Shown in pieces: positions 43,253 to 52,996 of a DNA stretch of 64,000 bases. The notes beneath the pieces were generated by a model, which made no database searches, was not told the origin of the DNA, and worked only from the letters and a program-made list of their open reading frames with translations. How positions within the stretch are numbered: position 1 is the stretch's first letter; each line of letters begins with the position of its first letter. This DNA comes from Myxococcales bacterium. Its GTDB lineage: Bacteria > Myxococcota_A > Polyangia > Polyangiales > DASUME01. The translations under genes were made by a program, and so were the position numbers. The stretch spans positions 6,912,001-6,976,000 of the forward strand of contig JASGJH010000001.1 in NCBI GenBank assembly GCA_047601445.1. The letters run 5' to 3'.

Positions 43253-45622
43253 TCATTCGAACGCGTCGAGGGGGTGGCGCGTGAGGTCGCGCTCGCCGGC
43301 GTCCCACGGCTCGAAGCCGTTGTTGACGTTGGCGAGGCCCGTCTCGGCGAGCTCGGGGTAGTGACGCAGGAGGACGCCCTTGAAGTCCGTGGCATCGATC
43401 CACGCGAGGCCCTCGGCCGTGTACGTCTCCGCGTTGTAGCTCTCGGTGTAGAAGCGGTCGGCCTGCAGGCGCCGGCTCGCGTTGAGGATGAACACCTGGA
43501 ACATGGTCTCGCCGAAGCCGTAGCCGGTGGGGCGATGGCTCTCCGCGCGGGTGCCCACGATGAGGTCGATGGCCTCGAGGTCGTTCTCGTAAATGCGCTT
43601 CAGCTCTCCCACGATCTCGGGGTCGTCGGTGAGGTCTTCGAAGCGACGGATGGGATTGAGGCCGAGCTGACGCCGGAACTCGTTGTAGCGCGGCACGCCA
43701 CGCTCACGGGCGCGCAGGATGTCCACGGCCGCCAGGTCGTACATGGGGTTCCCAGGCAGCGCGAGCTCGCGCAGGGTGTTGGGGTAGTTGCGCAGCACGA
43801 GCTGGCCAGGGTTGATGTTGCCGAAGGAGTACAGGAGGTCGGCGATGCGCTCGCGCTTGGTCACCTTGCAGGCGCCGTCGAAGCGCACCTCGGCCAGCCT
43901 CAGCTTCTCCTCGCCGGGCCGCCCGATGCGACGCAGCAGCAGCTCGTCGGGAAGCAGCTCGTGGAGACGGTAGATCTCGGTGAACTCGTCGCTCAAACCG
44001 TAGGGGCTGCCGTGCTTCTCGGTGTCGTTGCCCACAATGCCGCCGATCTCGGGGTTGCGGACCTTGATGGTGCGGAACACCTTGCGGTCCTCGCGCTTGT
44101 AGGCGTTCGTCTCGAGCAGGCCGTACCAGTTGGCGTTCATGGCCTGCTGCAGCGTGCCGTTGGGCAGGATGGCGGGCGTCCACTCCACCGTGTGGATCTT
44201 CGCGATCACGGCGGCGTTGATCAGGCGCGCCACATGGTAGAGGCGGTTGTCGTCCCAGTCCGGATAAGCGCGCGCCAGCATTTCGCAGATGGCGTTGTGC
44301 TCCTTCACGAACACCGTGTGCAGCAGGCTCAGGCCCAGCCACCAGTTGCGGTTGAAACCGGTGTCCTCGAAGCCCCACTGGCCCACGGGCAAGAGACCGT
44401 CTTCGCCCAGCTTGAGCTTGCCCTTGCTGTAGGAGCGCAGGCGGTCGGCTGTGGCCTGGTCGCTGCCGTAGATCTGCGACGCGTCCCACCAGCTCGTGAC
44501 CTCGTTGATGTACGTGGGCGGTGACCCGTCGTCGCTCGGCTTGCGACCGGCGTCGGACTCGGTGCGTCCCACGAACATCGTGGTCTGGTAGTACTTCAGG
44601 CGCGCGGGATGATCGGGAGGCAGCGGCACCTCGTGGGCGCCGAAGGCCAGATCCGAGCGGTGGCTGACCCAATCGTGGACGTTGAACTGAATCCAGGCCG
44701 CCGCGAGCAAGTTCAGGAAGGGCACCGGCTTCATGCCCTCGTCGGCGCGCTTGAACAGCTTCTGGCTGATCTCTGCGGGATTCGGCGAGAGCAACGCGGC
44801 CTTCTTGGGCCACGTCACGGCGCGGTCCACGTTGCGCGGGAAGCGCGTGTTGGCCGAGCCTTCGCGGGGGTTGTTCAGGTTGTTCCAGCTGCCGTCGGCG
44901 GTGCGGAAATACTTGGCGCTCTCGGGAGCCACCAGGCCGCGTGACTGGAAGGCGGTGAGCTCGCCCTCGGGGTAGGTGTCCTTGAGGTTCCGCTTGTTGA
45001 GTTGGTCGCGCATGTACGCCAGCGTCACGATGGCGTAGGCCGTGGGGCGCCGATACCAGTTGGTCCAGACTTCATCGGCGGTGCCCACCAAGCTAATCAA
45101 CGGCGTCACGCGGTGCAGGACCTCGCCCGCGCCCTTGCCGAGCACGTCGCCGACCTGCTTGCGCAGCCGCTCGGTGAGACTCGGCTTCTTACCGGGCTTG
45201 GCCAGGGGCAGCACGCCGTCCGTGGGGCTCGGCGCCGAGAGCAGCTCTTCGCGTGGATGGCGCGGCACCGGCGGACGCTCCACGTCGGCCCGCGTCTCCA
45301 GGGCGCTCGCAGCCTTGCCGAGCTTCTCGGCCCATTCGGCGCTCTTGGGATTGCGATTGACGGCCTCCACGAAGGCATCTTTGGCCTCGCGGTAGCGCTC
45401 GAGCAGCACGAAGCTGGTGCCCAAGAGTCCGTAGGTCACGTCGCTCGTGCTGCCCTTCTGGACCAGCACTTGAAGCACCTCGACGGCCTCCTCGAACTCG
45501 CGCTTGGCCAGGAGCCGGCGCGCCGTCTCGTGGGCCGCGTCCAGCGGGGTTCCGCCCGTGCTCGATTCGCGCGTCTCCTCTGGTGCCTTGTCACTTCGGA
45601 TCGCTTCCGCTTCCATGGTCAT
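43253..45622 (-). CDS. Fatty acid alpha-dioxygenase-like haem peroxidase (peroxidase-cyclooxygenase superfamily) with N-terminal TPR; alternative start 45688
   Basis: RTADGSWN, AWIQFNVHDW, WWDASQIYG, IHTVEWTPAIL, EFTEIYRLH, RERGVPRYNEFRR, RRLQADRFYT. Confidence 0.9.
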   Translation of the reverse strand: MTMEAEAIRSDKAPEETRESSTGGTPLDAAHETARRLLAKREFEEAVEVLQVLVQKGSTSDVTYGLLGTSFVLLERYREAKDAFVEAVNRNPKSAEWAEKLGKAASALETRADVERPPVPRHPREELLSAPSPTDGVLPLAKPGKKPSLTERLRKQVGDVLGKGAGEVLHRVTPLISLVGTADEVWTNWYRRPTAYAIVTLAYMRDQLNKRNLKDTYPEGELTAFQSRGLVAPESAKYFRTADGSWNNLNNPREGSANTRFPRNVDRAVTWPKKAALLSPNPAEISQKLFKRADEGMKPVPFLNLLAAAWIQFNVHDWVSHRSDLAFGAHEVPLPPDHPARLKYYQTTMFVGRTESDAGRKPSDDGSPPTYINEVTSWWDASQIYGSDQATADRLRSYSKGKLKLGEDGLLPVGQWGFEDTGFNRNWWLGLSLLHTVFVKEHNAICEMLARAYPDWDDNRLYHVARLINAAVIAKIHTVEWTPAILPNGTLQQAMNANWYGLLETNAYKREDRKVFRTIKVRNPEIGGIVGNDTEKHGSPYGLSDEFTEIYRLHELLPDELLLRRIGRPGEEKLRLAEVRFDGACKVTKRERIADLLYSFGNINPGQLVLRNYPNTLRELALPGNPMYDLAAVDILRARERGVPRYNEFRRQLGLNPIRRFEDLTDDPEIVGELKRIYENDLEAIDLIVGTRAESHRPTGYGFGETMFQVFILNASRRLQADRFYTESYNAETYTAEGLAWIDATDFKGVLLRHYPELAETGLANVNNGFEPWDAGERDLTRHPLDAFE

Positions 45623-45684
45623 GGATTCTCCTTGTTCCCCGACGAACGTCCTTGCCTGGTGTTTTTGCCTGTTGCGTACGCGAC

Positions 45685-51557: not shown

Positions 51558-52996
51558 AGCGCCTCCTCGGCGACCTCTTCGGGAGCTTCGGCAGGAGCGC
51601 CGTCGGTGCGCTCATCGGTGCGCGGTTTGAACACCGCCATCACCTGCTCCATCATGCGCTCGTAGCGCTGCTCGAAGGTGGCCCCCTCGAAGCGCGAGAG
51701 CTCGTAGCAGCCCAGCGGGTTCTCGAGGTCGTTGAGCAAGCACTTGTTGCAGTAGGTGCAGGGCTTCTCGGGCCCCTCGCGGCGCTGCAAGATCTGCGGC
51801 AAGTCGCGGTTGGCGATCAGCGGGCGTGCGATGGTGACGGCGTCGCAGGCGCCACTGCGAATGGCTTCGGCGATGACGGGGGCGTGCTGGAAGCCGCCCG
51901 TGCACAGCACCGGTACGGACACACGCGCGCGCACGTAGCGGGCGTACTCCACGTTGATGCCTTCGATCACCTTGCCGCGGCGCATGCGCCAGTAGGCGCT
52001 GAACGCACGGCCGAGCACCGGGTTGGTGAAGATGGCGTAGTTCAGCTTGGTGCGTACGCCACTCGAGAGCATGCCGTCGTACCAGCGCGCCGCTTCCTGG
52101 AACGGGAAGTCACCGGGCGGATTGCGCGGGTGGGGGAAGGTGCTGCCGCTCGACACGTGGAAGGCGTCGACGCCGTTGCCGTTGTCCTCCAGGATCTTGC
52201 AGATGAGGGCAGTCTCCTCCAGCCGGTTGCCGCGCTTCTCGAACGGGTAGAGCCAGTCGTTGTGGTCGACGCCGTTGATCTTCATCTGCAAGTGGAAGTC
52301 ACGCCCCACGCGCGCGCGAATGGCGCGCACGATCTCCAGCACGAAGCGCGCACGGCCTTCGGGGCCGCCGCCGTATTCATCGTTGCGGTCGTTGATGCCA
52401 GAGCTCAGGAACTGGGTCAGTAGGTAGCCATTGGCACCATGGAGCTCGACGCCGTCCAGGCCGGCCTCCCGAGCGCGCCCGGCGCCGTCGGCGAACTGAC
52501 GAATCGTCTCTTCGATCTGCGCCTTGGTCATCGGGTCGCAGAGAATCCCGTGAAAATAGTCCTTCTTGCCGGTGGAGCTCAGCGCCCGCCGGTACAGATT
52601 CTCGACTCCTCCGAGGTCTTGCTGTCGACCCGAGTGGCTCAGCTGCATGATGAACTTGCAGTCGTGGCGGTGGACACGCTCGCCCACCTGACGCCAGAAC
52701 GGGATCTTGTCGTCGTTATCGATCATGGCGTAGCGGGTCATGATGCGGCCGCGCACCGTGACGGGGACGAACGAGGACACGATGGCGCCGATGCCACCCT
52801 TGGCGAAGCTCTCTTCCCAGGTGAGCCGCGCGTCTGAACCATGTCCGTCGTAGTGGTCGAAGGTGCCCGAAATGCTCGAGCGAACCAGGCGATTCTTGAT
52901 GCGAAGGTTGCGGAACTTCAGGGGCTTGTAGATCACAGAACGGTCCGAAGACGAGTCGGCCTTGGCCGCCTGTTCGCGCGCAGCAGGTGCTTGCAT
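51554..52996 (-). CDS. NADH:flavin oxidoreductase (Old Yellow Enzyme family)
   Basis: IKNRLVRS, QLSHSGRQ, DGVELHGANGYLLTQFLS, NDRNDEYGG, IARPLIA, CTYCNKC. Confidence 0.93.
   Translation of the reverse strand: MQAPAAREQAAKADSSSDRSVIYKPLKFRNLRIKNRLVRSSISGTFDHYDGHGSDARLTWEESFAKGGIGAIVSSFVPVTVRGRIMTRYAMIDNDDKIPFWRQVGERVHRHDCKFIMQLSHSGRQQDLGGVENLYRRALSSTGKKDYFHGILCDPMTKAQIEETIRQFADGAGRAREAGLDGVELHGANGYLLTQFLSSGINDRNDEYGGGPEGRARFVLEIVRAIRARVGRDFHLQMKINGVDHNDWLYPFEKRGNRLEETALICKILEDNGNGVDAFHVSSGSTFPHPRNPPGDFPFQEAARWYDGMLSSGVRTKLNYAIFTNPVLGRAFSAYWRMRRGKVIEGINVEYARYVRARVSVPVLCTGGFQHAPVIAEAIRSGACDAVTIARPLIANRDLPQILQRREGPEKPCTYCNKCLLNDLENPLGCYELSRFEGATFEQRYERMMEQVMAVFKPRTDERTDGAPAEAPEEVAEEAL

Follow-up and report, generated by a model that had tools for sequence, protein, structure and literature searches.

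Within a 64,000-nucleotide stretch of a Myxococcales genome (contig JASGJH010000001.1, positions 6,912,001 to 6,976,000; hereafter, the window), seven co-oriented open reading frames (ORFs) occupy positions 43253-52996 of the minus strand. An earlier sequence-only reading of the window had described them, in this same order, as a haem-oxygenase operon for an oxylipin or fatty-aldehyde pathway. From its genes, we predict that the operon is a variant of bacterial oxylipin-type chemistry. The ORF listing of the window gives, in gene order:

51554..52996, minus strand: old yellow enzyme (OYE)-family flavoenzyme, 480 aa (PF00724, E 8e-55); core gene
49941..51557, minus strand: dihaem c-type protein A, 538 aa (PF21419, two CxxCH, RoxA fold); core gene
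49440..49880, minus strand: small membrane protein, 146 aa, no family name; core gene
47870..49459, minus strand: dihaem c-type protein B, 529 aa (PF21419, two CxxCH); core gene
46748..47812, minus strand: extended short-chain dehydrogenase/reductase (SDR), 354 aa, like cinnamoyl-CoA and dihydroflavonol reductases (CCR/DFR); local accessory gene
45685..46668, minus strand: truncated catalase-fold protein, 327 aa (longest ORF from 46791; structure match); accessory gene
43253..45688, minus strand: alpha-dioxygenase (alpha-DOX)-type haem enzyme, 811 aa (PF03098); variable gene

The family labels of the sequence-only reading hold for the flavoenzyme, the two dihaem proteins with two CxxCH motifs each, the extended SDR and the peroxidase, as does its description of closely spaced or overlapping genes. 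Intergenic gaps are −4, 60, −20, 57, −44 (or +79 with the 46668 start) and −4 nt in gene order, and both overlaps that it named are present: GTG/TGA at 51554-51557 between the OYE and dihaem A genes, and 49440-49459 between the membrane-protein and dihaem B genes. The GC content at third codon positions (GC3) is 0.83-0.90 across all seven genes. For the catalase-fold gene, 46668 is a likelier start than 46791, as it matches the database gene call (P0001, 327 aa) and the extra 41 codons of the longest ORF have a GC3 of only 0.66. An oppositely oriented gene ending at 43183 flanks the operon on its 3′ side and a 517-nt gap lies above 52996 on its upstream side; a scan for promoters and terminators was not above chance (1 versus 0.8; 4 versus 7.5). 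Each operon gene is single-copy in the 9.5-Mb genome, except for the A/B pair and distant paralogues.

Conservation of the four-gene core

A profile scan returned at least 772 relatives of dihaem A, the best 80 of which yielded 78 loci, including 38 with a length of 20 kb or more (the full-flank loci). Counted with profiles built from these same loci, the OYE gene occurs in 37 of the 38 full-flank loci, the membrane protein in 34 and dihaem B in 32, with all three together in 29. The genes conserved together are those for OYE, dihaem A, membrane protein and dihaem B; the remaining genes are variable and do not make one fixed pathway. Thus—while conserved synteny, on which the sequence-only reading had staked its proposal, was borne out by gene neighbourhoods for this core—the fixed seven-step route that it had drawn was not: the reductase orthologue is absent (0/38 full-flank, 0/78 loci in all), and alpha-DOX and the operon-type catalase-fold family meet in a single locus (1/78).

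Genes of lipid and peroxide metabolism recur beside the core. Among the 38 full-flank loci we found a third, distant dihaem gene in 23, lipase-like hydrolases in 15, glucose-methanol-choline (GMC) oxidoreductases in 14, alpha-DOX in ten (22 of all 78 loci), lipoxygenases in eight and P450s in three, with a fatty-acid oxygenase or P450 in 18. The operon-type catalase-fold family accounts for eight loci and any catalase fold for 13; alpha-DOX adjoins some catalase-fold gene in 10 of the 22 DOX loci. At least one lipase, lipoxygenase, P450 or catalase-fold gene stands beside the core in 31 of the 38. An unnamed family of ~480 aa without a Pfam or NCBIfam match (L074:158-1642 and nine other loci) also occurs beside the module, and beside a catalase-DOX fusion.

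The 78 loci span Acidobacteriota, Cyanobacteriota, Chloroflexota, Pseudomonadota, Planctomycetota, Myxococcota and Verrucomicrobiota. A congener (G304) has the same seven genes in the same order with a patatin added, split over two contigs. One contig carries OYE and the beginning of A, the other the last part of A, membrane protein, B, reductase, catalase-fold gene, patatin and DOX. Rhizobium plasmid pRL11 carries OYE, A, membrane protein, B, third dihaem, GMC and patatin. The module is patchy, with dihaem A in 5 of 301 genomes of its own phylum and 3 of 10 of its genus.

Genome samples drawn independently of the cytochromes confirmed the OYE link. In 201 cyanobacterial genomes, this OYE type is rare, occurring in five (including the centre), four of which have it adjoining the dihaem pair and the fifth adjoining alpha-DOX. 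Likewise, 201 acidobacterial genomes held five strong OYE matches (including the centre): three beside a dihaem gene, one beside alpha-DOX and GMC, and one alone. Of 26 cyanobacterial loci, 7 have alpha-DOX no further than 10 kb away, against 4 of 201 cyanobacterial genomes with the gene anywhere; alpha-DOX often occurs without the core. Together with the locus counts, these cytochrome-independent samples led us to reject chance clustering of the operon genes.

Folds and residues of the encoded proteins

Dihaem A has an N-terminal membrane anchor (residues 25-43), CxxCH motifs at 129 and 338 and a MauG-motif His417; dihaem B, a paralogue with 37% identity, has its anchor at 10-28. The haem motifs are spaced by 204 (A) and 201 (B) residues. 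Given two CxxCH motifs and one N-terminal hydrophobic anchor each, A and B are probably exported and periplasm-facing, and the anchors would fit the cytoplasmic and periplasmic arms envisaged from sequence alone. Against hidden Markov model NF040606 (cut-off 150 bits), which matched none of 14 control genomes, A scores 154.8 and B 144.2 bits; the NCBIfam RoxA, RoxB and RoxC models gave only 45-62 bits against cut-offs of 900-1000. In structure, RoxA is the best match of the A model (pLDDT 85; Foldseek E 7e-7; against 4b2n, Z 16.4, root-mean-square deviation (rmsd) 3.9, 381 residues aligned), followed by cytochrome c peroxidase (CcP) and MauG at Z ~10.

Several features of the RoxA class are present—the fold, two CxxCH, the MauG motif, the haem-2 distal His and the inter-haem Trp, the last kept in both A and B. 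Profile alignment of A to RoxA pairs His417 with H517, His517 with H641, Trp272 with W302, His271 with F301 and Ala290 with F317, the 301-317 mapping resting on a weakly scoring segment (domain i-E 0.24) anchored on the WDG motif; B has His253, Trp254 and Asp272 at positions 301, 302 and 317. Across loci, the F301 position is His in 82 of 84 A-type and 46 of 57 B-type sequences, and the F317 position is Ala in 64 of 84 A and Asp in 42 of 57 B. The distal pockets are accordingly predicted to be polar rather than hydrophobic. RoxA, as described in PMC6797691, needs F301 and F317 to hold O2, and its F317A and F317H variants are poor or inactive. Since both Phe are replaced in A and B, cleavage of isoprenoid or rubber C=C bonds, the role that the sequence-only reading had borrowed from RoxA, is disfavoured.

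In a tree, A (82 tips) and B (55 tips) form two unmixed clades, which argues that the pair is old and differentiated. Complex prediction for A and B scored 0.50 (best control 0.00; runs 0.62, 0.25 and 0.50) with contact agreement of at least 4% and partner pLDDT of at least 86. This gives weak support and is not used as evidence here: 116 of 157 solved and 2 of 215 mismatched pairs reach the mark for such scores, 18 of the 157 and both mismatches doing so at 0.60 or below.

The dihaem A family is large: of 7996 proteins scored, 6358 reach E<=1e-10, and members occur in cyanobacteria, in soil bacteria and on rhizobial plasmids. The best named relative of dihaem A among the collected genomes belongs to a Polyangiales bacterium, which makes a myxobacterial host likely. 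Homologues also occur in 174 plasmid records, mostly Ralstonia megaplasmids (127) and Rhizobium (30), i.e. plant-associated bacteria, with no Pseudomonas among them; in the rows listed, copies are one each in Ralstonia and two each in Rhizobium. Three further distant RoxA-like dihaem genes lie elsewhere in the present genome (G000:C1 ~6779131-6779988, 7659823-7661157 and 8055932-8056129). In five assemblies (L029, L037, L042, L058 and L067) dihaem genes look split or frameshifted, by sequencing error or decay.

The peroxidase was called alpha-DOX-like from sequence, and its residues bear this out. It matches rice (4kvj, E 2.5e-113) and Arabidopsis alpha-DOX in the range E 1e-113 to 1e-107; the next families are far weaker (lactoperoxidase, E 5e-31; cyclooxygenase, ~1e-14). 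With the 3-residue offset of the rice PDB chain worked out by hand, the distal and proximal His, catalytic Tyr and stacking Phe (H338, H576, Y573, F569 and F733) correspond to rice H157, H382, Y379, F375 and F552, and the carboxylate-clamp His and Arg and C2-positioning Thr (H499, R740 and T504) to H311, R559 and T316. These motifs are largely common to 27 neighbouring copies. By its residues the enzyme is an alpha-DOX, and its activity would be that of the characterised plant and cyanobacterial alpha-DOXs. A TPR-like N-terminal extension of ~200 residues (weak TPR signal at 88-125) precedes the catalytic part.

For the flavoenzyme, the catalytic His/Asn/Tyr motif (186-191) is present, with the FMN-barrel His/Asn pair and the Tyr acid. 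A CX2CX2CX11C 4Fe-4S motif at 413-430 is kept in 60 of 61 homologues, with a median of 30 residues after it in the family. We saw no second Pfam domain, FAD domain or export signal. This suggests a truncated 2-enoate-reductase type with an Fe-S motif rather than an enzyme like plant 12-oxophytodienoate reductase (OPR), the OYE cited in the sequence-only reading; no OPR-named entry appears among its 18 PDB matches at E<=1e-25. Because the Fe-S motif is present without an FAD domain, its electrons likely come from an external donor or, directly at FMN, from NAD(P)H.

The small membrane protein has no Pfam, NCBIfam or named Atlas family. Its family alignment shows conserved polar Asn22, Trp51, Tyr66, Arg87 and Asp108, and no conserved His, nor a conserved Cys that could serve a redox cofactor. 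Its earlier description as a 4-TM protein fits in part: four hydrophobic stretches can be seen by eye in the alignment, but a hydropathy scan gives only two clear peaks. In four loci it is fused to dihaem B and in five to the catalase-fold protein, which ties the three proteins together. A MAPEG/FLAP-like role was considered and found no support.

The reductase is an extended SDR (YxxxK at 157-161). Its resemblance to cinnamoyl-CoA and dihydroflavonol reductases (E 4e-60) exceeds that to aldehyde reductase II (E 2e-30), which corrects the earlier 'aldehyde reductase' label. Among the loci examined, an orthologue (72%) was found only in congener G304, and the 78 loci hold just two weak SDR matches.

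The catalase-fold protein has no Pfam or NCBIfam match, and a PDB sequence-profile search with its alignment found nothing significant. Though without a family match, the label is borne out by structure: the model (pLDDT 90) aligns over ~180 residues to catalases and catalase-related proteins at Z 12-13 (1m7s, Z 13.2, rmsd 3.3, 178 aligned; 3e4y, Z 12.3, rmsd 3.8, 182 aligned), and the Atlas places a catalase-family cluster for it at 0.95. In the structural alignment (model 86 = human catalase 70), the distal-His position is Arg91, which if ungapped falls on catalase His75. Among 65 homologues, 36 have Arg and 29 have His in this column, and six more distant copies inside the module keep the His. 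Most alignments stop at model 312 (catalase ~349), before the proximal-Tyr helix, that of catalase Arg354/Tyr358, and most homologues end within ~20 residues of the last conserved motif. As Arg holds the distal-His position and the chain ends before that helix, the catalase-related hydroperoxide lyase or allene oxide synthase role assigned earlier is disfavoured in its standard form; in this lineage the protein is probably lipid-peroxide-binding or a non-canonical enzyme. Its His305, invariant in the family and common to a second truncated family beside cyanobacterial alpha-DOX (hhalign probability 95%), could—speculatively—be a haem ligand.

That second family (~305 aa; distal His kept, same terminal His motif) is always found beside cyanobacterial alpha-DOX (L037:3812-4741, L045, L049, L053, L058, L065 and L205). 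A small catalase-like family (L056:6487-7473, L072 and L083) keeps the proximal Tyr by eye and has Gln where the distal His is expected; it occurs alone, or fused to a dihaem protein or alpha-DOX (L012:9105-12002, L200:1288-4248 and L206:3171-6059).

Further genes surround the operon. An MpaB/Lcp-type haem oxygenase domain (PF09995) is fused behind a multi-pass membrane region at 36770-38608 (minus strand), adjoined by a MAPEG protein at 36229-36753 (plus strand), 4.6 kb downstream of the operon. In congener G304, no Lcp-type gene was seen next to the operon. Near the 3′ end lie an EVE-domain protein (38764-39222) and a cyclic-nucleotide-binding/GGDEF diguanylate cyclase (41354-42457). Directly upstream, two large co-oriented proteins without a Pfam match (53514-56018 and 56034-59618, minus strand; 834 and 1194 aa) follow, the larger with a long glycine run, and GC falls to 0.61-0.62 at 52-56 kb of the window.

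Distribution of alpha-DOX and the third dihaem protein

None of the 78 loci combines alpha-DOX, present in 22, with the third dihaem, present in 30, where 8.5 such loci would be expected (raw Fisher p 3e-6). Four phyla contain loci of both kinds. After tree correction the exclusivity is not significant: of 6 independent pairs, 3.4 go the same way and 0 the opposite, with a median p of 0.25. Ten DOX-type whole genomes, this one included, have no third dihaem (positive control G359), and seven third-dihaem whole genomes have no alpha-DOX; since both genes are rare, these checks rule out only a truncation artefact. The distribution hints at interchangeable initiators, an exclusivity that tree correction leaves unestablished. 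The third dihaem as sole initiator is weakened by the lipoxygenases, which co-occur with it in all nine lipoxygenase loci.

A bolder reading would make of the core a cross-phylum, plug-in oxylipin machine spanning the inner membrane, whose fixed part processes fatty-acid hydroperoxides from an interchangeable initiator (alpha-DOX or third dihaem), helped by a C-terminally truncated catalase fold that would bind haem via its invariant terminal His in place of Tyr. We regard this as doubtful. If true, it would provide the first native pathway for bacterial alpha-DOXs and a new reaction class for RoxA-fold proteins.

Proposed role and comparison with known systems

We favour, with moderate confidence, the view that the operon is a variant of a widespread four-gene core, here with alpha-DOX as initiator, that likely makes and converts fatty-acid hydroperoxides. 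A lipase would supply free fatty acid, as the patatin and lipase neighbours in relatives suggest; this operon has none. Alpha-DOX, at the inner membrane face, would add O2 at C2, and the 2-hydroperoxy acid would decay to the Cn-1 aldehyde or be reduced to the 2-hydroxy acid. The periplasm-facing dihaem pair would work like PA2077/PA2078 of Pseudomonas aeruginosa, oxygenating the fatty acid and/or rearranging or reducing its hydroperoxide, while the membrane protein, judging from its fusions, may hold the lipid or pass it between the two membrane faces. Finally, the OYE would reduce the resulting enal or enone with electrons from an outside donor via its Fe-S cluster, and the SDR would reduce the aldehyde to the alcohol. 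The product may be a signal, a compound used in defence or the end product of a detoxification.

Several observations weigh against this view. The loci were picked for their resemblance to dihaem A, and many come from related Nostocales, so that their counts overstate independence, and 7 of the 38 full-flank loci carry no counted lipid or peroxide gene. Two Myxococcota genomes have the dihaem pair with no OYE or DOX within 20 kb; three of the four alpha-DOX genomes in the cyanobacterial sample lack the OYE type, and in none was the dihaem pair seen. Catalase-fold genes of the operon type mostly stand by themselves, a core gene adjoining them in 1 of 80 metagenome loci (median locus only 5 kb), and within the genus the family is present in seven of nine congeners, the operon in only one. 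The alpha-DOX would be cytoplasmic and the dihaems periplasm-facing; they need not share a substrate, as they lie on opposite membrane sides and 2-hydroperoxy acids decay without a partner. Lastly, His271 could be a sixth haem ligand, which would make A and B electron carriers.

Such carriers would suit a core that works as an electron-transfer chain or lipid-peroxide reductase, running from the OYE Fe-S cluster through the membrane protein to the dihaems and guarding the envelope, with oxygenases recruited as peroxide makers and no dedicated product. An OYE with an Fe-S motif and without an FAD domain, hence in need of a redox partner, would agree with this, as would the inter-haem Trp of both dihaems, the His in the distal pocket, the fold common to CcP and MauG, and the changing oxygenase partner (DOX, lipoxygenase or P450). 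However, no His or Cys that could bind a redox cofactor is conserved in the membrane protein. Successive chemical steps are suggested by the two differentiated dihaem paralogues, joined in 23 of 38 loci by a third, and the lipase neighbours point to substrate supply; we consider this chain unlikely. The MauG motif and fold could also mean that the core oxidises a non-lipid substrate (a small aromatic, a secondary metabolite or, MauG-like, a protein residue), alpha-DOX and reductase being separate passengers. The closeness of the SDR to phenylpropanoid and flavonoid reductases and the frequent GMC neighbours (14/38) are in line with this, but alpha-DOX was recruited repeatedly in six phyla, lipoxygenase, patatin and lipases were recruited too, and no recurring peptide-substrate or biosynthetic scaffold gene appears among the named clustered neighbours, making it decidedly improbable. 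Least credible of all is the linear seven-enzyme pathway of the sequence-only reading, with DOX as the source of the hydroperoxide, the catalase-like protein as the enzyme that splits it, C=C cleavage by the RoxA-like proteins, and completion of the product by OYE and reductase: the two-contig synteny of G304, three further database contigs with both catalase-fold protein and dihaem A, and the DOX loci with an adjoining catalase fold speak for it, yet the catalase-fold protein is without distal His and Tyr helix, F301 and F317 are replaced, RoxA's own F317A and F317H variants cleaving poorly or not at all, and the reductase is not conserved.

If the favoured reading—a core that makes and converts fatty-acid hydroperoxides—is right, the module would be a widespread but so far unrecognised way of making oxylipins or fatty aldehydes. 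It would also bring new enzymes, namely a dihaem protein with a His/Asp pocket, an Fe-S OYE that has no FAD domain and a catalase fold that is truncated. Our search of the open-access literature found no description of this gene set. This window contributes the alpha-DOX version of the core, the catalase fold in its truncated form and a possible swap of initiators.

A tandem pair of RoxA-like dihaem proteins that produces oxylipins is, however, already known, a precedent that the sequence-only reading had not mentioned. According to PMC4496055 and PMC6377657, PA2077/PA2078 are a periplasmic tandem pair that forms the 10-hydroperoxide of oleate and then the 7,10-diol; PA2077 is the 10S-dioxygenase and PA2078 the 7,10-diol synthase of a 'FadCcp' subfamily (PMC4496055). 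Likened by described features rather than by aligned sequences, they are the nearest characterised analogue, and A and B may work alike: both pairs are operonic, paralogous, exported and RoxA-related, with two CxxCH and the MauG motif, the partners are 43% identical there and 37% here, and the RoxA F301 position is polar in both (Gln in PA2077/PA2078, His here; PMC4496055). By sequence, A and B lack two listed FadCcp features, having Ala/Asp for Phe at the F317 position and a haem spacing of 201-204 for 235-245. They differ further in that both keep the inter-haem Trp. They are also smaller (~530 versus 624-634 aa), and their anchors look uncleaved. OYE, membrane-protein and alpha-DOX partners are not described for PA2077/PA2078 in the part of PMC4496055 available to us. 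In the papers found, RoxA-fold dihaem enzymes have two characterised chemistries, rubber cleavage and oleate oxygenation (PMC6797691; PMC4496055). RoxA itself (4b2n; PMC6797691), the best structural match, has equivalents here of His517, His641 and Trp302, whereas A and B differ in F301 and F317, in being membrane-anchored and in being paired.

The other proteins depart from their relatives as well. The OYE resembles the 2-enoate and 2,4-dienoyl-CoA reductases of PMC11759058 in TIM barrel, catalytic Tyr and Fe-S motif; there, CX2CX2-3CX11C binds a 4Fe-4S cluster and 96% of the subfamily have an FAD domain, whereas the protein described here has none and measures 480 rather than ~700 aa. Small catalase folds stand beside a haem dioxygenase, as here, in coral (1u5u, 3dy5) and in the 10S-DOX and lyase of Nostoc punctiforme (PMC13049297); in contrast to these hydroperoxide lyases and allene oxide synthases, the present protein has Arg for the distal His, is truncated before the proximal-Tyr helix and is partnered by alpha-DOX, not by 10S-DOX or lipoxygenase. 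For bacterial alpha-DOX, PMC8720084 states the native role as unknown and describes the enzymes as biocatalysts. All eight catalytic, haem and carboxylate residues listed there for plant and cyanobacterial alpha-DOX (rice 4kvj, Arabidopsis 4hhr, CalDOX and LepDOX) are kept in the operon enzyme, which differs from them in its TPR-like extension and in an operon that joins alpha-DOX and RoxA-fold dihaem enzymes in one testable unit.

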